Shown here: positions 7,406 to 62,985 of the stretch, piece after piece
Numbering within the stretch: the stretch's first letter is position 1
How the letters are laid out: each line of letters starts with the position of its first letter
Assembly: GCA_902539295.1 (NCBI GenBank)
Contig: CACBIM010000007.1
Span: 31,837-95,836 of the forward strand
Source: an uncultured SAR116 cluster alpha proteobacterium
GTDB taxonomy: Bacteria; Pseudomonadota; Alphaproteobacteria; Puniceispirillales; GCA-002684695
Direction of reading: 5' to 3'
DNA length: 64,000 nucleotides
Position numbers and translations under genes: made by a program
Notes under the pieces: generated by a model
Database searches by the model: none
What the model saw: the letters and a program-made list of their open reading frames with translations, nothing else
What the model was told of the DNA's origin: nothing

Positions 7406-7504
7406 TTTATTATCTCCCTTATGATTTTAATCAAATTTAAAGTCGTTCTCCCAGATGTTCAGAATTTTTGTTTAAGGCAATTTAAACAATTTTTCACAAA
7501 ACAC

Positions 7505-7534
7505 AGTCAGTAAACGACAGTTACCTTACTGTGA
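7505..7534. promoter_or_regulatory. candidate operator site 1 (AGTCAGTAAAC-N10-TTACTG)
   Basis: Shares the 11-mer AGTCAGTAAAC and the CAGTAA-N12-TTACTG spacing with the perfect palindrome at 7785..7818. Lies about 115 bp upstream of the SBP start. Confidence 0.5.
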
Positions 7535-7784
7535 GCGTTCAAAGACAATAGATAAGAAATATACCTAATTAAATTTTATTTTTAGATATTAAAAAAAATA
7601 GATCCTAACTTTAAATTCACTTTCATTAGAAAATAAACATTTTTTTCATATTAGCGTGTCACATCCACTAACTAGGTCACTAAAAACTTGAGATATTTAT
7701 TTCAAATCTAAAACACCTTTTAACACTCATAATAATAAACTAACATGCTGAAAAAAGAAAAAAACAATTTTTTTATGGCAATGT

Positions 7785-7818
7785 ATAGTCAGTAAACAAA
7801 GATTTGTTTACTGACTAT
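7785..7818. promoter_or_regulatory. 34-bp perfect palindrome; candidate operator site 2 and/or transcript-end hairpin
   Basis: ATAGTCAGTAAACAAA-GA-TTTGTTTACTGACTAT has 16-bp perfect arms. It overlaps the stop codon (7815-7817) of the minus-strand gene 7815..8384. Confidence 0.6.
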
Positions 7819-8384: not shown

Positions 8385-8581
8385 TTTTTCTCCTTACAGG
8401 ATGACCACAAACTTTTAAATCCAAAAAAAAATACAGTTGTAGCGAATTCATAATCAAATTAGTCTATAAATTATAATTTGAGTCAAGTTATTTGAGATAT
8501 GACAAAATTAATTAGCAATTATATTTTCAATCTCTCAAAATTGATTATTAATTACTAAATTTCTAATTAGGGATCTTAAAA

Positions 8582-12887: not shown

Positions 12888-13006
12888 AAATTTTTACTTG
12901 TTGCAAATTATTTCCTATTTAAATAAAATAATATAATTAATCAGGTCGGTCACAGCCCTGTATAAAAAAAGGCCAATTGAATTGTTAAGACTACTAGGGA
13001 TTTTTA

Positions 13007-13234
13007 ATGGTTTTATTTGGAAACTTTTTCAATGGAAATGCTCTTAAGGGTAAAGATGCTTCTTTTAAAGTGGGTCAAAAAATACAATCAAAATCAAATG
13101 GTTCAATATGCTCTATCAAAAGAGAGATAACTCTTAATAATATTAAACATTTTGAAATTTGTATTGAAAATGATGTTGCTAAAAGAGAAATAATTTTGAG
13201 TGAACACGCACTCAAACTTAATTATCAATTATAG
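13007..13234 (+). CDS. hypothetical small protein
   Basis: 75-aa ORF only, with no recognisable motif. Confidence 0.3.
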   Translation: MVLFGNFFNGNALKGKDASFKVGQKIQSKSNGSICSIKREITLNNIKHFEICIENDVAKREIILSEHALKLNYQL

Positions 13235-13237
13235 TCT

Positions 13238-17569: not shown

Positions 17570-18820
17570 ATGGATACTAGTGTTGAAACTCTCAAAACTG
17601 CTGACGGTACGCCTTTAAAAAAGAAACTCCAGCAGTCACTATTTAGAAATAAATTAAGGGCTTTTGGTTTAGTATCTCCGCTGTTAATTTTCTTGTTATT
17701 TTTATTTGTTCTGCCAATAGCGCTATTGCTTTGGCAAGGCGTTTATGATCCTAGATTTAGTAATTTAATGCCTGAAACATCGAATATACTTGAAGATTGG
17801 GATGGTGTGTCTGAGCCTACTGAAGATATGTATGCAGCTTTAGTAGTTGACTTAGTTAATGCAAAAAAAAATAAAACAATTGGTAAGGTTGCTACGCGTG
17901 TTAACAGGGAGCTTTCAGGAACTCGTTCTTTATTTACTTCAACTGCAAGAAAGGCATCAAAGTTAAAGGCACCATATAAAAAATCCCTTAAAAAAGTTAA
18001 AAAGAAATGGGTTGAAATAGAAACTTGGCAGGCAATGAAAGTTGCTTCAAATGTTTATACAGTTGGCTTTGTAGCTGCAGCTTTAGATTATAAATTAAAT
18101 GCTGATGGGACAATTACAAGACAAGAGGAAGATAGACGCATCCATATAAAACTATTTATTAGAACATTAGAAATTTCTCTTATTGTTACTTTAGCATCAC
18201 TATTGTTAGGTTATCCAATTGCCTACTTGATGGCATCTTTACCACTCAGAACTTCAAACCTTTTATTAATTTTAGTATTATTACCATTTTGGACTTCACT
18301 TTTAGTAAGAACTACTGCTTGGATAGCCATGCTTCAGGGTGAGGGGGTTATGAATGATTTATTTGTTGTATTTGGATTTGCTGAGGATGATGATCGTTTT
18401 TCCCTCATATATAATAAGACAGGTGTCCTAATAGCAATGACACATATATTACTGCCTTTTATGGTATTGCCAATTTATTCAGTTATGAAAACAATATCTC
18501 CATCTTATGTAAGAGCGGCCAAGTCTTTAGGTGCAACTAATTGGACTGCTTTTTGGCGAGTTTATGTTCCTCAAACAATCCCTGGGGTCGGCGCTGGTGC
18601 AATTCTAGTTTTTATTTTAGCTATTGGTTATTATATAACGCCAGCATTGGTTGGTGGTCAGGACGGACAGATGATTTCTAACTTTATTGATTTTCATATG
18701 AGAAAATCACTTAATTGGAACCTTGCTGCAGCCATGGGATTGGTTTTGCTTGTAATTATCCTTTTCCTATTTTGGATATATGACCGAGTTGTGGGCATAG
18801 ATAATATGAAGTTAGGTTGA
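17570..18820 (+). CDS. ABC transporter permease (PotB-like) with a large periplasmic insertion
   Basis: C-terminal half has the permease core and EAA-type loop (YVRAAKSLGATNWTAFWRVYVPQ). I prefer the ATG at 17570, because the TTG at 17546 lies inside the hairpin. Confidence 0.85.
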   Translation: MDTSVETLKTADGTPLKKKLQQSLFRNKLRAFGLVSPLLIFLLFLFVLPIALLLWQGVYDPRFSNLMPETSNILEDWDGVSEPTEDMYAALVVDLVNAKKNKTIGKVATRVNRELSGTRSLFTSTARKASKLKAPYKKSLKKVKKKWVEIETWQAMKVASNVYTVGFVAAALDYKLNADGTITRQEEDRRIHIKLFIRTLEISLIVTLASLLLGYPIAYLMASLPLRTSNLLLILVLLPFWTSLLVRTTAWIAMLQGEGVMNDLFVVFGFAEDDDRFSLIYNKTGVLIAMTHILLPFMVLPIYSVMKTISPSYVRAAKSLGATNWTAFWRVYVPQTIPGVGAGAILVFILAIGYYITPALVGGQDGQMISNFIDFHMRKSLNWNLAAAMGLVLLVIILFLFWIYDRVVGIDNMKLG

Positions 18821-25686: not shown

Positions 25687-26319
25687 ATGCTTATTTCAGA
25701 TACATTTAGTATTAAAATTAATATTCTTATTGTAAGAATTATAAATAATAAACTAAATGCTCTTTTTTGGAAAAAAAAAGAAAATGATAGCTGGGAACTT
25801 CCTAGTCAAACTATGTCATACAATCAAAACTTTAAATTTGTATGCAAGAGTATTCTCAGTGAAATAGTGAATAATAAAAGCCTGCAAGAATTTAATTTCA
25901 GATCAGCTGGTTATTTCATCAACGAAAAAACTGTAGAGTTTAATTATTTATGTCTTAGTAAGAAATTTAAATACAGCTTTATATACAATGATAAATTAAA
26001 AGATATAACTTGGGTAAATAGTGAAAAAGTTGCTAAATTTAACTTGTTAGCTGATACTTTAAATAAAAACTTTGAATTTATAAGATTTTTTATTTTAAAC
26101 AACCCAGAACATATCTTTTATTTAATAAAAAATGAATTTACTCTAACCGAACTTCAAGATGCGTTTTTAAGTTTGGATTTAGAAAATAAACAATTTACTG
26201 AAAAAAGAAATTTTAGAAAATGGTTATTTCAGAAAAGTAAATTAAAAAACTTTATTGAAGAAACTGATAAAATAAGAAAAGGACAACATCGCCCTGCAAA
26301 AATTTTTAGATCAGTTTAA
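25687..26319 (+). CDS. NrtR-like protein: degenerate Nudix-like N-domain plus C-terminal winged-helix
   Basis: The C-terminal FTLTELQDAF..EKRNFRKWL..IEETDKIRKGQHRPAKIFR matches the pattern I recall for NrtR-type wHTH domains. No intact Nudix box is seen. Confidence 0.5.
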   Translation: MLISDTFSIKINILIVRIINNKLNALFWKKKENDSWELPSQTMSYNQNFKFVCKSILSEIVNNKSLQEFNFRSAGYFINEKTVEFNYLCLSKKFKYSFIYNDKLKDITWVNSEKVAKFNLLADTLNKNFEFIRFFILNNPEHIFYLIKNEFTLTELQDAFLSLDLENKQFTEKRNFRKWLFQKSKLKNFIEETDKIRKGQHRPAKIFRSV

Positions 26320-35077: not shown

Positions 35078-35144
35078 ATACCATATAGACTTATCATTTT
35101 ATATTTACAATATAATCACTAGCACAAATGTTAAAAAGTATAAT

Positions 35145-35495
35145 ATGGAATTAATTTTTATATACAATGCTCAAAAAGGTCGATTAAACAGTTTAATCGA
35201 TTATATCCACAAAACAGTATCTCCTGGAACATACTCTTGTAATTTATGTGCCATCACGCACAATTTTAAGAAAAAAATAAAATGGGATAATTTTATACAA
35301 AATTTCCCACATAAAATTAAATTTTACTACAAAGATCATCTTAATGATTTAAAATTAAACAATTATAAGAATGAATTGCCCTGTTGTCTAATTTATAAAG
35401 ATGAAAAATACTCCTTATTAATTAATAAAACCACTATGAAAATTTTAAAAAATGAAGAAGAACTAATTGAACTTATAAAATCCAAATTTACTTAA
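35145..35495 (+). CDS. conserved hypothetical CxxC protein
   Basis: MELIFIYNAQKGRLNSLIDYIHKTVSPGTYSCNLCAITH.. The ATG at 35145 avoids overlap with the minus-strand gene. The upstream part of ORF 34899..35495 is antisense to a real gene. Confidence 0.6.
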   Translation: MELIFIYNAQKGRLNSLIDYIHKTVSPGTYSCNLCAITHNFKKKIKWDNFIQNFPHKIKFYYKDHLNDLKLNNYKNELPCCLIYKDEKYSLLINKTTMKILKNEEELIELIKSKFT

Positions 35496-35974
35496 TGTTC
35501 AATATAATATTACATCATCCCCAAATTCCTCCAAACACTGGCAATATAATTAGATTATGTGCCAACACAGGATGTAGATTGCATTTAATAAAACCATTAG
35601 GATTTGACATAGATGAAAAATCCTTCAGGAGAGCAGGGCTAGATTATCATAATGAAAATATTTTAAGATCCTATGATAATCTTAATGTATGCCTAACCGA
35701 ACTTAAAAGTCAAAATGTATATGCGGTGACAAAATTTGGATCAACAAACTTTACTCATGTAAAGTTTAGTATTGGTGATACATTAATTTTTGGATCAGAA
35801 ACGAAAGGGTTGCCAAACGATGTATTAAATAAATTTTTGGAAGGTAATAAACTTTTTATTCCAATGGTAAAAAATTCCAGAAGTCTGAATTTAAGTAATG
35901 CGGTAAGTATTGTTATTTACGAAGCTTGGAGACAGCAAAAATTTAAAAATTCAGAGTTGTTTAATGAAAAATAA
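35495..35974 (+). CDS. trmL: tRNA (cytidine/uridine-2'-O)-methyltransferase TrmL (SpoU family)
   Basis: MFNIILHHPQIPPNTGNIIRLCANTG..LIKPLGF..RAGLDYH and the C-terminal LNLSNAVSIVIYE knot motif. TAATG overlap with the upstream gene. Confidence 0.92.
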   Translation: MFNIILHHPQIPPNTGNIIRLCANTGCRLHLIKPLGFDIDEKSFRRAGLDYHNENILRSYDNLNVCLTELKSQNVYAVTKFGSTNFTHVKFSIGDTLIFGSETKGLPNDVLNKFLEGNKLFIPMVKNSRSLNLSNAVSIVIYEAWRQQKFKNSELFNEK

Positions 35975-36989
35975 AGATTTAAAAGAATATAAAATTAAGC
36001 CACCTTCAAAATATAAATTCACTAAAATAATTGATGACCTTTATTGGGCGAGGTTACCTCTTCCATTTAGATTGGACCATGTAAATATTTTTGCAATACG
36101 TAGCGTCGAAGGGTTAGTCATTGTAGATACAGGCCTAAATAACTTTGAAACAATGACATGCTGGAACAGTATTATAAAAAATTTTGAAAAAAAAATTAAA
36201 GTTTCAAAATTATTAATATCTCATCATCACCCTGATCATATAGGACTTTCTAAATTTTTATCAGAAAAATTGAATATTAAAGTTTATGCTCCAAAGAATG
36301 AAATATTAAGAGCTGAAAAAATTATTAATTTAAGTGATAAAGAATATGGGCAAATGTTATCAAATAAATATGAGGAATTTGGGCTTGCTAGAAAAGCAGT
36401 TTTAAACGCTAAGACAAGAGGAAATTTTTATAGATCAATGATAAAAGAAACTCCTTTTATTAAAGGCATTGATAGAAGTTTTTTTATAGAAACTGAATAT
36501 GGAAAATGGAATGTAAGATTTGATACGGGTCACTCTCCTTCGCAATTAAGTTTATATGATGAAGTAAGAAAAATTTATTTATGCTTTGACTTTCTATTGC
36601 CTAGAATTAGTCCCAATATTTCAGTTGGTATTGAGGATAGTGAAAACAATATTTTAGGTAAATATATTAATTATTTGGAAAATGTAAAAAATAATTTTGA
36701 TGAAGAATGGATTGTTTTTCCTGGGCACGAGTTTCCTTACTTTGATCCTGTTAAAAGGGCATCAAGCTTAATTAATCACCACGAAAATCGTTTAGACCTT
36801 CTTTACAAAAGTATTAAAATAAAATCAATTAATGTAAAAACGGCAATGGATTTATTATTTGGCTCGATAAAAAATGACCATGATTTATTTTTTGCTATAT
36901 GTGAAACAAAAGCACATTTGAACCTCTTACTCAATTATAAGAAAATAAATATGAAAAAAATTAACAACCAAATTATTTATTGTAATTAA
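35964..36989 (+). CDS. MBL-fold metallo-hydrolase
   Basis: ISHHHPDHIG motif. I prefer the ATG at 35964 (MKNKDLKEY..) over 35910, which would run deep into trmL. Confidence 0.8.
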   Translation: MKNKDLKEYKIKPPSKYKFTKIIDDLYWARLPLPFRLDHVNIFAIRSVEGLVIVDTGLNNFETMTCWNSIIKNFEKKIKVSKLLISHHHPDHIGLSKFLSEKLNIKVYAPKNEILRAEKIINLSDKEYGQMLSNKYEEFGLARKAVLNAKTRGNFYRSMIKETPFIKGIDRSFFIETEYGKWNVRFDTGHSPSQLSLYDEVRKIYLCFDFLLPRISPNISVGIEDSENNILGKYINYLENVKNNFDEEWIVFPGHEFPYFDPVKRASSLINHHENRLDLLYKSIKIKSINVKTAMDLLFGSIKNDHDLFFAICETKAHLNLLLNYKKINMKKINNQIIYCN

Positions 36990-37002: not shown

Positions 37003-37890
37003 ATGAATAAAAAAAATTCAATAGATTTTTTTGGAGCTTCTTTGCTAATAATTTTCTCAGTTTTGCTGGGTTTAAATCAGTCACTTGTTAAAATAGTTAA
37101 TTTGGGAATGCATCCTATTTTTCAGGTTGGAATACGCTCTTTAGTAGCTGCTATACCTGTAATAATATTTTGTTTACTTTTTAAAAAAAAACTTTCCATA
37201 TCAGATGGTAGCCTTATTCCAGGTATAATCTGTGGTTCATTATTTGCCCTTGAATTTGTGCTTTTGTTTTTTGCATTAGAATTAACCTCAGTATCTAGAT
37301 CTTCAATTCTATTTTACTCTATGCCTGTATGGTTAGGTATTTGTGCTCATTTCTTATTTGAAGAAGAAAAACTAAATATAAAAAAAATAATTGGTTTTTT
37401 AATTTCAATAGCTGCTGTTACAATTGCTATGTCATCAAAAGCTAATATATCAAACGGGAGCGTCCTAGGTGATATATTTGCTTTATTGGCTAGCTTTTTA
37501 TGGGCTGCAATCATCTTGATGGTAAGAATGACTAACTTAAAAAAATCAACCCCTGAAATGCAACTTCTTTATCAGCTAGTTGTTTCGGCCATCATTATAC
37601 TTCCGTTAACAGCTTACCTAGGTTTTGGCCTGAGAGACATTACGATATCAATAATATTTATTTTTCTTTTCCAGAGCTTAATTATTGTTGCTGCAGGTTT
37701 TCTTATTTGGTTTTGGGTTTTATCTATTTATCCAGCTTCTCTAATGGCCTCATATAGTTTCTTTGGACCTATATTCGGTGTGTTTTTTGGTTGGTTAATA
37801 TTTAAAGAAGAGATAAGTATAACAATAATATTATCTCTTCTTTTTGTAAGCGTTGGTATTTATTTAATTAACTCAAAAAATATAAATTAG
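37003..37890 (+). CDS. DMT-superfamily (EamA-like) transporter
   Basis: 295 aa with 10 TM-like segments in two repeats. Confidence 0.8.
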   Translation: MNKKNSIDFFGASLLIIFSVLLGLNQSLVKIVNLGMHPIFQVGIRSLVAAIPVIIFCLLFKKKLSISDGSLIPGIICGSLFALEFVLLFFALELTSVSRSSILFYSMPVWLGICAHFLFEEEKLNIKKIIGFLISIAAVTIAMSSKANISNGSVLGDIFALLASFLWAAIILMVRMTNLKKSTPEMQLLYQLVVSAIIILPLTAYLGFGLRDITISIIFIFLFQSLIIVAAGFLIWFWVLSIYPASLMASYSFFGPIFGVFFGWLIFKEEISITIILSLLFVSVGIYLINSKNIN

Positions 37891-45022: not shown

Positions 45023-45709
45023 ATGGCTAATAAAATCGCCTTAGTAGACGATGACCAAAATATTTTAACATCAGTCTCCTTAGCATTAGAAGCAGAAGGT
45101 TTTAGTGTCGATAAATATTTAGATGGTGAGCAAGGCTTAAATGGTATTAATAGACGGCCACCAGATTTATTAGTCTTAGATATCAAAATGCCAAGATTAG
45201 ATGGCATGGAAGTTCTTGAAAGATTGAGAAAAACATCAAATTTGCCCGTAATTTTCTTAACTAGTAAAGATGACGAAGTTGATGAGGCGCTTGGATTGCG
45301 AATTGGTGCTGATGATTATATTAAAAAGCCTTTTTCCCAAAGGTTACTAATTGAAAGAATTAAAGCCTTACTAAGAAGGGTCAATAACAGCAATGAAACT
45401 GATCCAGATGCAATTCTTGCTCGTGGAGATCTTACAATGGATACATCTAGGCACTCATCCAAATGGAAAGGTGATGATGTCAGGCTTACTGTAACTGAGT
45501 TTTTAATTTTGAAAGATCTTGCTCAAAGAACAGGCATTGTTAAAACCAGAGACCAATTAATGGATGCAGCTTACGGTGAAACAATATATGTTGATGATAG
45601 AACTATAGATTCTCATATAAAAAGATTAAGGAAAAAATTTCGCTTAATAGATAAAAAATTTGATCAAATTGAAACACTTTATGGTGTAGGATACAGGTAT
45701 CGTGAATAA
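45023..45709 (+). CDS. chvI: OmpR-family response regulator ChvI
   Basis: [69 protein letters not shown] closely tracks alphaproteobacterial ChvI/BvrR. Strong RBS (AGGAGGG). Confidence 0.92.
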
Positions 45710-47281
45710 TAAAAAAAATTTAAAAAAAAAAGATTTTTTTCAAGGCTTTCTACAACTCTTTATTTAATAATATTACTTCCTGTATTTATTACTTTTATTG
45801 GAATTCTCTTTCTCGATCAATATACCAAAACCTTAGTATTACATGAATTATCTGGTTTAAAAAGACAAGCTGAGACGTTAGCTGTTATGATTAATAGACT
45901 AGAGGGAGACTCTGAAAAAGTAATTAGACGATCACTTTCAAAAGAAACTAAGGAATTACTCTTGCCCCTTGCAGGAAGAGATAACCAGGTAAGAATACGA
46001 TTATTTCAGCCAAATGGATTATTATATGCAGATACAAAGTCACTTTCGCAATTATCACCTAAAGTTGAAGTCTTAAGACTTCCTAAGTTAACTGATAATA
46101 AACAATTTGAAAAAATTAATGATTTTATCAAAAGTTTTTTCTCAATTTTTCAACTTAAAACAAATTATCCACTTTATGAAGATTATTTGAATACAACTGC
46201 CAAAAATTATAATGAAGTGTTAGAAGCTTTAAAAGGCTTTAATGCTCATGAAATCAGACAGGATAAAAATGGCAAACTTGTACTAAGTGTTGCAGCTCCT
46301 ATTGGAAATGAGAGAAGAGTAAGGGGGGCTATAATGCTTTCTATGGATGGTATAATCATTCAGAATAATATTGCTGATTTACAATATTCTTTTCTGAATA
46401 TTTTTGGATTTGTGATTTTTTTGACTATTTTCTTAAGTTTTATTTTTTCAAACAGAATTACTTTGCCAATTAGCAGGTTGGCTGCGGCAGCTGATAATGT
46501 AAGGAATAAAAAAGGAATGGAGATTAAAAGCTTAATTAAAAGAAAGGATGAGATTGGAGAACTGGCATTATCCTTAGATGAAATGACAAAAGATCTATTT
46601 GATAGAATGGATGCAATTGCTTCTTTTGCTGCAGATGTTTCTCATGAAATTAAAAACCCTCTGACATCTTTGAGAAGTGCTGTGGAAACTTTATCAATAA
46701 TTAAAGATGAAAGAAAAAAAACAAAACTAATGAAGATTATTCTAGAGGACATAAATAGGCTAGATAGGCTTATCACTGATATATCTGATGCAAGTAGACT
46801 GGACGCTGACTTATCTAGAGATGAGATGAAATTAATAAACCTTTCAAAATTAATTAATGGTTTCATTAATATTAAAGAAGAAACAAATAAAGAAATTACT
46901 TTTATTAACAATGTTGAAGATGGTTTAGTAATTTTTGGAAACCAGTCACGGCTTTTGCAAGTGTTAGATAATCTGATAGGTAATTCGATCTCATTTTCGC
47001 CTAAAAAGGGGAAAATTACAATTGAAGGTTATTCAAGCAATGGAAAAGTAAAAATTTCAATTGCAGATCAGGGAAAAGGGATTTCTGAGAAAAAGAAAGA
47101 AACTATATTCGAAAGGTTTTATTCTGACAGACCATCAGATGAAAAATTTGGCAAGCATTCAGGTCTTGGTTTATCAATCGTGAAGCAAATATTAGAAAAG
47201 CACAATGCAAAAATTGTAGCTGATAATATATATAATGAAAATCAAGGTATCGCAGGCGCTAAATTCACAATTGAGTTTTGA
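45702..47281 (+). CDS. chvG: sensor histidine kinase ChvG; N-terminus requires a one-A (-1) shift at the A10 tract 45722-45731
   Basis: HAMP, H-box ([16 protein letters not shown]), N, G1 (DQGKGI) and G2 (GLGLSIV) boxes lie in the ATG-ORF 45887..47281. The same frame is open from 45713 and encodes TM1 but has no start. A GTG at 45702 lies in another frame. Confidence 0.8.
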
Positions 47282-48769: not shown

Positions 48770-49201
48770 AAGAGATAAAAAATAAAAGATTACTACAATC
48801 TTGTTGGATTAAAGCTCTTAGCAAAAAAAATATCAATAAGCTGTACAGAAGGGGATGTAATAACCCTTTCTGGACCTCTTGGTGTTGGAAAAACTACATT
48901 TGCTAAATATCTCATACAGTATTTAGTTGATGAGAATATTGAAGTTACTTCTCCAACATATAATATTATCCAATCCTATAGAAGATTTGATGAAATCGAG
49001 ATTCTACATATGGATTTCTACCGATTAAATGACAAAACAAATATTTATGATTTGGATATCATCGAGTCATTTGAAAATGCTATATCTATTATTGAATGGC
49101 CGGAAAAATTAATTGAAATTATACCAGAAAAAAGGTTGAATATTAAATTAAGTTTTGTTGATGATGATGATGATCTTCGTAAGATAATATTAGCTGACTA
49201 G
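48753..49201 (+). CDS. tsaE: tRNA t6A37 biosynthesis ATPase TsaE; start unresolved (no in-frame canonical start before the P-loop)
   Basis: Frame open from 48779 encodes ..[46 protein letters not shown], the YjeE/TsaE hallmarks. The first in-frame ATG (49010) is downstream of the Walker A. The ATG at 48753 is in the adjacent frame. Confidence 0.8.
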
Positions 49202-49202
49202 T

Positions 49203-62166: not shown

Positions 62167-62985
62167 TTAATAAAAAACTCCAGTTACTGAATTTTTTTTA
62201 TTTGAAGTTATACTACTCAAGCCTTTTTCAAAGTCAATTACAGCACTATTCCCTTTTATGAAGCTCTCATTTTGTTTTATTATTACATTGCCTTTGAAAT
62301 TTATTTTCCGTTCAAGATTAAAAAATTCAGCCTCATTTGATGAAATATTTTGTTGCAAGCTATCAATGGTGACATTAACATTATCAATTGCTTTGACGTA
62401 TATTATATTTTCATTTTTATCAATTTTTATTGTTAATTTATTAGCATTTATTTTAGCCTCAGGGTTTTTTGAAATTATCAAAACATTCCCAACTAATAAA
62501 ATTTTTTTTTCACCTTTGATGTATAGTAGTCTATTTTGAGAATAAACAGTACCTAAATTTGAAATCATCGAAATATTATCACCTTCAACTAGTAATGTTT
62601 CTTTTGCTAAGTTATAATTCATAAAATTTGAATTGATTGTTATTTGAGATGTCTTAAATGTCGCTTTTTCACTTGCTATGAGATTTTGTATTTTACCCTT
62701 TCCTATTAACCCTTCATAGGACCCAATAATTTCATTAGCATTTATTGAAAAAAGACTTGATTTAACCTCAGCGTCGCCTAAAGCAACAATTTTATTTTCC
62801 AACTGATACCATTCAAGTTTTTCAGAAGCCTTTATTTCAATCTTGTTTTCTGCATTAAGCTCAGTTGCGGTTGCCACATATAAGGAAAAACTAGTAAGTA
62901 TGGAAATAAAAAATATTTTTTTTAAATTACAGATGCTTAAAAACATAACAACTTTTATTAAATTATAATTATTTAAAAAAAACAA
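62167..62985 (-). CDS. lptA: LptA/OstA-family periplasmic LPS transport protein
   Basis: Signal-like N-terminus and a repetitive beta-jellyroll-like sequence. Sits between lptC and lptB. Longer than typical LptA, and the start is uncertain. Confidence 0.65.
   Translation of the reverse strand: MFFLNNYNLIKVVMFLSICNLKKIFFISILTSFSLYVATATELNAENKIEIKASEKLEWYQLENKIVALGDAEVKSSLFSINANEIIGSYEGLIGKGKIQNLIASEKATFKTSQITINSNFMNYNLAKETLLVEGDNISMISNLGTVYSQNRLLYIKGEKKILLVGNVLIISKNPEAKINANKLTIKIDKNENIIYVKAIDNVNVTIDSLQQNISSNEAEFFNLERKINFKGNVIIKQNESFIKGNSAVIDFEKGLSSITSNKKNSVTGVFY

Follow-up and report, generated by a model that had tools for sequence, protein, structure and literature searches.

A conserved poly(A) frameshift at the chvI-chvG junction of SAR11-type bacteria, probably rescued by transcriptional slippage

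Runs of about 9 A or T are long enough to make bacterial RNA polymerases slip (Atkins review, PMC5009743). In Buchnera and Blochmannia, poly(A) frameshifts are conserved between species and are rescued by transcriptional slippage, with about 30% of the transcripts being full-length (PMC3017870). Here we analyze a junction resembling these sites in a 64,000-nucleotide stretch of DNA (contig CACBIM010000007.1, positions 31,837 to 95,836; the whole stretch is called the window, and coordinates refer to it). The G+C content of the window is 30.9%. In it, the gene of a ChvI-type response regulator of the OmpR family, chvI, is directly followed by the gene of a ChvG-like sensor kinase, the start of which overlaps or is coupled to the end of chvI. 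The kinase body lies in the same reading frame as chvI, is open from 45713 to 47281 and contains no ATG, GTG or TTG until ATG 45887. The likely start codon, GTG 45702, opens the adjacent frame, which reads GTG AAT AAT AAA AAA AAT TTA AAA AAA AAA GAT and thus runs into a tract of ten A residues (A10). It had been predicted from the sequence that the N-terminus of the kinase is out of frame and that one A too few in this tract separates the two frames. All coordinates and translations of this original prediction were found to be correct when the sequence and the open reading frames (ORFs) were re-checked, including the GTG frame that is open as far as 45765, and conceptual insertion of one A into the tract gave a continuous protein of 526 aa.

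Junction DNA was collected from 38 SAR11-type contigs by exact-protein look-ups and by a metagenome DNA-pattern scan for the 3' end of chvI, in which 16 of the 82 matches were SAR11-type and the remainder were mostly high-GC soil response regulators. When genome contigs were searched with a profile of the SAR11 ChvG, the matches listed comprised distant Alphaproteobacteria (33-41% identity, L011-L090) and no SAR11. The out-of-frame layout is common to 31 contigs from six lineages, with kinase identities of 69-97%; contigs from different samples may share one population, so that 31 overstates independence and six lineages is the safer unit. It was observed in Illumina Tara assemblies, in single-cell genomes and in polished long-read contigs. 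Identical copies of the ChvI protein occur in 144 blocks of public assemblies. Ten contigs with the identical ChvI were fetched, and nine of them (Illumina Tara scaffolds, two single-cell genomes, polished long-read) show the same A10 and the same frame layout, the exception being a long-read contig (L006) in which the tract is miscounted and homopolymer errors are evident elsewhere. Three near-identical, pilon-polished long-read contigs of 0.46-0.99 Mb (L002, L006, L010) have polA, chvG and ahcY split into two to three ORFs, apparently by homopolymer indel errors, and are therefore unusable for judging tract lengths. Errors of this type illustrate why genuine homopolymer frameshifts are dismissed as artefacts.

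The tract is A10 in most contigs of the clade, A9G in three (L152, L153, L157) and A11 in three others (L132, L155, L096), and it is never shorter than nine; the A9G and A11 forms are substitution variants, which leave total length and frame offset as they were. The GTG start is present in all 31 contigs. In the three types of lineage compared, 32, 32 and 35 nt separate it from the conserved Phe-Phe codons, each value being 2 mod 3, and the sole lineage-specific change of leader length spans a multiple of 3 nt. Close relatives differ immediately 5' of the tract by a single substitution, A to G at 45716, which is synonymous in the GTG frame (AAA to AAG) and would change Lys to Glu in the kinase frame. 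The GTG is retained even though the overlapping ChvI residue is changed from Arg to Cys (TGT GAG in L097 and L152), which is consistent with selection on this GTG as the start codon of chvG. The end of ChvI is YRYCE, not YRYRE, in L097, L115, L152, L153 and L157, where CGT to TGT alters the penultimate residue and the overlapping GTG is preserved.

Four contigs set narrow limits to the position of the shift. In L092, L093, L097 and L101 the T that precedes the tract forms a TAA with the tract's first two A's, and this stop closes the kinase frame; L092, L093 and L101 also have a stop in the GTG frame immediately behind the T-run which follows the A-run. In all four the two frames overlap only over the A-run and the T-run, and the shift is therefore confined to one of these runs. 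The T-run is T7-T9 in nearly all lineages and T5 in L097, and it is also present in the in-frame relatives L099 and L139. The tract does not keep a constant phase against the zero frame: its first A is the third base of a codon in the window and L091 and the first base in L092, L093, L097 and L101. The base that follows the tract may be G, C, T or A. The position of the TAA that ends the unshifted product also varies between lineages, and this product is therefore probably a by-product. The leader holds a second long run, A8 at 45711-45718, just upstream of A10; near-identical relatives vary in this run (AAAAAGAA in L001, L003, L004, L007-L009, L141 and L142), which is hence not conserved.

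Codon-aligned comparisons were made among eight lineage representatives. The ratio of nonsynonymous to synonymous substitution rates (dN/dS) of the 51 start-less codons between the tract and Met 45887 was 0.03-0.15, and that of the rest of the kinase 0.08-0.14; dS ranged from about 0.6 to saturation in most pairs and was 0.12-0.36 for the closest pair (L097/L152). Because dN/dS stays low over synonymous divergence that reaches saturation, the start-less stretch is translated and the gene is not decaying. No other disruption was found in the gene of about 520 codons in any lineage compared. A search with the conceptual full-length kinase separated two SAR11-type groups, one of 69-97% identity, annotated with internal starts, and one of 53-61% identity, with full single-frame N-termini and lengths of 530-544 aa. 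The N-termini of the latter match the translation of the start-less stretch of the window residue for residue. The claim that an N-terminus coding for the first transmembrane segment (TM1) is real and out of frame is thus borne out by these deeper relatives together with strong purifying selection. A comparison of orthologous junctions had been suggested as a check on that claim; it showed 45713-45886 to be conserved as protein, with A11 not being the norm.

The run itself stands out from its surroundings. A10 is the longest homopolymer of the window and its only A10/T10 run, against an expectation of 13.5 +/- 5.8 from dinucleotide-preserving shuffles. The window thus avoids runs of this kind, with the single exception at the chvI-chvG junction. 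Elsewhere in chvG, 12 positions carry an A/T run of at least 7 in any lineage and none of them is kept in all ten representatives, and the junction tract is at least 9 in ten out of ten. Genes of the window contain six Lys-Lys-Lys triplets, of which four are spelled AAA AAG AAA, and the lone run of four Lys codons also contains AAG; this spelling, small in numbers, is consistent with avoidance of long runs. Inside long ORFs with intact frames, A9 runs occur at 17863-17871, 25771-25779, 36187-36195 and 37183-37191 and a T9 run at 62502-62510, and one intergenic A9 lies at 8423-8431. If polymerase slippage is appreciable at A9, the ORFs that hold these runs would also yield some frameshifted transcripts.

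The coordinates of the junction are collected in Table 1. In the start-less stretch, a basic stretch, a hydrophobic helix and the motif LDQY precede the kinase domains. On the conceptual A11 protein, Pfam found Sensor_TM1 (E 2e-4, below the cut-off), Stimulus_sens_1, HAMP, HisKA and HATPase_c; this is the domain order of ChvG/ExoS/BvrS, and TM1 is included only with the frame shift. The best model by far was NCBIfam NF058527 (ChvG), with E 2e-110, aligning residues 12-525 of the protein to positions 27-530 of a profile of 535. Since the alignment starts at residue 12, the start-less TM1 is covered by it. The score of 370 bits did not reach the equivalog cut-off of 740. The assignment to kinases of the ChvG/ExoS/BvrS type therefore stands as far as domain order and adjacency to chvI are concerned, but not as a strict ChvG equivalog by score; we call the kinase ChvG-like. 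For the regulator, the top NCBIfam match was not ChvI-specific; one source gives it the name ChvI, and the pair is named ChvI and ChvG by JGI.

Table 1. Features of the chvI-chvG junction in the window.
Feature	Coordinates	Strand	Evidence or remark
chvI, OmpR-family response regulator gene	45023..45709	+	TAA stop at 45707-45709; Pfam Response_reg and Trans_reg_C
Remnant of the ancestral chvG start, ATG GTG TAG	45681..45689	+	frame of GTG 45702; reads MV* in the window
GTG, likely start codon of chvG	45702..45704	+	overlaps the last chvI codons (GTGAATAA); +1 frame relative to chvI and the kinase body
Short leader rich in Lys and Asn, GTG frame, 10 residues	45702..45731	+	no stop before the tract in any lineage
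Second TAA, chvI frame	45710..45712	+	directly after the chvI stop; closes the kinase frame upstream
A10 tract, putative slippery site needing a net -1 change (one extra A in the mRNA)	45722..45731	+	conservation of run length across lineages
Body of chvG, -1 frame (the chvI frame)	45732..47281	+	periplasmic Stimulus_sens_1, TM2, HAMP, HisKA, HATPase_c
T7 run, possible secondary slip site, codes for the conserved Phe-Phe	45734..45740	+	just 3' of A10
TM1 of the kinase, 23 residues, -1 frame, no start codon of its own	45746..45814	+	weak Sensor_TM1 match; ChvG model alignment; outgroup conservation
TAA closing the unshifted GTG-frame product (21-aa peptide)	45765..45767	+	reading-frame check

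In current annotations the kinase is shortened. Gene callers start it at ATG 45887 in the window, which gives 464 aa. Their products elsewhere in the frameshift group (69-97% identity) are 464-510 aa long and begin at arbitrary internal starts, and in the sampled clusters, together several hundred sequences, the called lengths are truncated almost without exception. Two products of close relatives are odd in other ways: P0002 (497 aa) continues for 33 C-terminal residues beyond the FTIEF at which these kinases usually end, as if a stop codon had been lost, and P0003 (448 aa) lacks 16 residues in the TM2 region, where 18 residues have shrunk to FL. Each may be a genuine variant or the result of an assembly error. 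The apparent gap of 177 nt between chvI and ATG 45887 had been regarded as atypically long. In a crude ORF set it is the ninth longest of 59 gaps (median 53 nt), which agrees with this, but five of the 42 same-strand gaps are at least 177 nt, so that the length is not unique. The largest stretches without an ORF of at least 80 aa in this tightly packed window lie elsewhere, at 35078-35909 (832 nt), 48770-49202 (433 nt), 7406-7814 (409 nt) and 12888-13237 (350 nt), and may hold RNA genes, small genes or regulatory regions.

The frameshift had a single origin. In a neighbour-joining tree of the kinase body, all frameshifted lineages fall in one clade, and the in-frame L099 and L098 lie outside it. 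In the outgroups L099, L139 and L126 the start of chvG is an ATG that corresponds to 45681 and lies within the 3' end of chvI; from there MVLDID...KKK...FFSKL is read through an in-frame A9 or A10, in what is the GTG frame of the window. In L099 the GTG itself is absent (CGA GAG) and the upstream ATG is used. The simplest history would be that one base was lost at or just after an ancestral in-frame poly(A) tract coding for Lys and that the loss was then retained. The window still carries a remnant of the ancestral start, in which the TAG at 45687-45689 arose by a synonymous change in the overlapping Val codon of ChvI (GTT in the outgroups, GTA in the window). The frame of the ancestral ATG is open in L093-96, L125 and L155; in the lineage of the window no usable start precedes GTG 45702. 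Lineages of this one clade therefore probably differ in the start codon that they use.

We consider a recoded chvG, read by way of transcriptional slippage that sets the dosage of the kinase, to be the best explanation of this layout, and put its probability at about 0.6. Translation would start at GTG 45702, coupled to the end of chvI, or in some lineages at the ATG 21 nt upstream; a Lys-rich leader of about 10 codons would be read, and the move to the -1 frame would take place inside A10. RNA polymerase, by reiteration on the A10/T10 template, would produce a share of A11 transcripts that code for the full-length kinase with TM1 in one frame, and unslipped transcripts would give a by-product of 13-21 aa. 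The output of the kinase may in this way be lowered to a fixed fraction of ChvI, and selection would have kept the layout since its single origin. Predicted downstream RNA folds over 70 nt had low stability (-1.9 to -7.5 kcal/mol), and those of different lineages were not homologous. RNAalifold gave only a pairing of the A-run with the U-run, with a covariation term of -0.14, and no hairpin at 5-9 nt. Because neither RNA structure nor covariation was found at the site, a mechanism that depends on run length only is favoured, namely polymerase slippage; this also fits best because a run of at least 9 is conserved while the tract phase and the following base vary.

Transcriptional slippage, -1 ribosomal slippage and phase variation, all of which had been named in the original prediction, remain as mechanisms. 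The ribosome might make the shift itself, by -1 frameshifting or sliding on A_AAA_AAA or on T_TTT_TTT of the T-run of an unedited A10 mRNA. The heptamer A_AAA_AAA is present in the GTG frame of every lineage, and the zero-frame stop stands directly after the T-run in L092, L093 and L101. A stop just after a slip site could favour shifting, and sliding of ribosomes on long poly(A) is known. However, there is neither a hairpin at the 5-9 nt spacing nor covariation, inspection of the sequence near the tract (for an upstream Shine-Dalgarno-like element by eye only) revealed no stimulator, and an unstimulated A_AAA_AAA is a weak shifter in E. coli. Moreover, the tract differs in phase between lineages and is followed by any of the four bases, and what is conserved, a run of at least 9, suits polymerase slippage better than the ribosome, which we consider an unlikely agent of the shift. 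A switch at the DNA level is likewise improbable as the explanation of the whole. In such a switch most cells would be OFF (A10), replication slippage would turn some ON (A11), and selection on ON cells would preserve the gene. The tract does occupy the beginning of the ORF, a position typical of classical contingency genes, and one population (>99% DNA identity) contains three alleles: A10T9 (L093-95), A11T8 (L096) and A11T9 (L177 and L186, from different samples), the last being in frame and coding for a single-frame protein of 538 aa. To our knowledge, SAR11 Ia is without mutLS mismatch repair, which would destabilise such tracts. The tract is mutable at the DNA level, and DNA-level switching probably occurs as well. 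Yet the in-frame share is two of six contigs in that one population and none of about 25 good contigs elsewhere, and the OFF frame is found in 31 of 33 decent contigs and dominates in all six lineages. Outside lineage D, in-frame alleles were seen only on two poor contigs, L184 (1.9x coverage, a nonsense change) and L185 (614 bp, several odd substitutions); their in-frame A11, which came from a protein search with the N-terminus only, was discounted because these contigs are short, low in coverage and laden with errors. No deletion allele (A9, A8) or larger insertion was seen, where typical contingency loci spread in length, and a dN/dS of about 0.1, uniform along the gene, would be hard to keep over divergence that reaches saturation if the gene were silent in most cells.

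The two explanations that would make the junction trivial are both very improbable. A true genome with A11 and an ordinary gene would be misread if the homopolymer had been miscounted, and long homopolymers are indeed error-prone, as the many split genes of L002, L006 and L010 and the miscounted tract of L006 demonstrate. The same count was nevertheless obtained from Illumina metagenomes, single-cell genomes and polished long-read assemblies; the in-frame A9 or A10 of the outgroups L099, L100, L139 and L126 is read correctly by the same kinds of data; the substitution variants A9G and A11T8 hold the same offset; and the gene calls of the sampled clusters are truncated almost throughout. A miscall, one of the proposals made for this site, is thus very unlikely with the same layout in 31 assemblies from several platforms and six diverged lineages. 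The kinase might instead begin at Met 45887 (464 aa, no TM1) or be in decay, with 45713-45886 as a non-coding remnant, and this Met is in fact the only canonical start in the frame, so that every gene caller picks it or another internal start. Such a remnant would hardly keep a dN/dS of 0.03-0.15 over 51 codons with many synonymous changes, nor align residue for residue with TM1 of the in-frame relatives and with the ChvG model; the internal starts chosen by the callers differ between lineages and are not conserved; and export of the periplasmic sensor domain would fail if TM1 were missing. The suggestion of a decaying kinase is just as hard to maintain, at a dN/dS of about 0.1 and with no further disruption across about 520 codons in any lineage. 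Two other routes into the kinase frame were rejected. Read-through from chvI is ruled out by two stops in the window and up to four before the tract in relatives. Non-canonical initiation in the kinase frame was discarded as well, there being no ATG, GTG or TTG before 45887, and such codons of relatives (TTG etc.) lie inside or after TM1 and are unconserved. No near-cognate start is conserved before the FFxKLSTT motif, and in four lineages the kinase frame opens only inside the tract.

Several points weigh against transcriptional slippage as the explanation. The slippage, its transcriptional nature and its effect on kinase dosage are inferred from sequence. A10 holds A_AAA_AAA in any phase, and the sequence cannot separate slippage of the polymerase from that of the ribosome. 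The two good contigs L177 and L186 of one population carry the in-frame A11T9. The tract codes for Lys-Lys-Lys, and with AAA being 83% of the Lys codons, part of its conservation is expected anyway. ChvG protein was detected in cultured HTCC1062 (PMC13198564), and the kinase is therefore made in at least one SAR11 strain, where it may come from either type of junction.

SAR11 was reportedly described as being without pseudogenes in the genome paper of Giovannoni et al. in 2005. SAR11 genomes have very few regulators, with four two-component systems (PMC13198564), and the junction described here is a selected, clade-wide frameshift in one of their few sensor kinases. A full-text search of the open-access literature found no report of the chvG site or of slippage in Pelagibacter, which is not proof of novelty. 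In a 2026 preprint on 135 complete Pelagibacter genomes, frameshifts are treated as Nanopore homopolymer artefacts, and chvG and slippage are unmentioned. Pipelines that call homopolymer frameshifts of Pelagibacter assembly artefacts would hide the chvG site, and the current annotations of chvG are wrong, being proteins of 464-510 aa without TM1 or cut within it, in clusters of several hundred entries. If slippage operates here, recoding of this kind, hitherto known mainly from mobile elements, a few genes like dnaX and mxiE, and drift-dominated endosymbionts, would extend to a free-living bacterium under very effective selection, and the ratio of kinase to regulator could be set by slippage in a cell with minimal transcriptional control. 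We propose more tentatively, as a speculation which goes beyond this, that selection, and not drift or error, might hold one of three or four sensor kinases of the most abundant free-living bacterium in the ocean permanently out of frame, with poly(A) slippage setting its output, possibly tuned by conditions (nucleotide pools, temperature, growth rate), and with a rare heritable ON switch in addition. Slippage by the polymerase would then serve adaptively to set dosage, and would do so for a core regulatory gene on the chromosome of a streamlined genome.

The chvG junction appears to belong to the known class of slippage-rescued homopolymer frameshifts, as judged from its run length and its conservation under selection. 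It has an uninterrupted A run of at least 9 at the frame junction (A9-A11 in 31 of 31 clade contigs), and the frameshift is conserved across diverged lineages, with a dN/dS of 0.03-0.15 downstream and a leader that is always open upstream. The poly(A) frameshifts of Buchnera aphidicola and Blochmannia (Tamas et al. 2008, Wernegreen et al. 2010, cited in PMC3017870 and PMC5009743) are alike in the AT-rich, reduced genome, in the one-base indel within a run of nine or more A's and in being shared between species without further decay and under purifying selection; mixed transcripts and a lower effective expression are expected in both. Slippage has been demonstrated experimentally there, whereas for chvG it is predicted from sequence. 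The chvG junction differs in that a signalling kinase, not a housekeeping gene, is hit, and at its extreme 5' end, and its conservation appears deeper (synonymous saturation, six lineages). In Thermus thermophilus dnaX (A9), Shigella flexneri mxiE (T9) and many insertion sequence (IS) transposases (PMC5009743), a run of at least 9 A or T is likewise the sole cis element, and two overlapping frames are joined by slippage into a full-length or fusion protein. In dnaX (tau and gamma) and IS elements (OrfA and OrfAB) the shifted and the unshifted product are often both functional, while the unshifted product of chvG is a non-conserved peptide of 13-21 aa. The -1 ribosomal sites A_AAA_AAG or A_AAA_AAA of E. 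coli dnaX and the IS1 and IS3 families share a slippery heptamer of Lys codons and the net -1 change; unlike them, chvG has a tract that exceeds the heptamer and stands in different codon phases in different lineages, and no Shine-Dalgarno-like or hairpin stimulator was found. Contingency genes of Neisseria, Haemophilus, Campylobacter and Helicobacter also have a homopolymer within the first codons, and in-frame and out-of-frame alleles coexist as they do in at least one population here. In chvG, however, one OFF length dominates over deep divergence, and the gene encodes a core two-component sensor, not a surface antigen or a restriction-modification system. What distinguishes the chvG junction from the endosymbiont cases is its host, which is free-living and streamlined, with an enormous population, and its target, one of very few sensor kinases; drift, which is a less natural cause of retention here than in Buchnera and Blochmannia, would be a poor explanation of why this frameshift has been kept.

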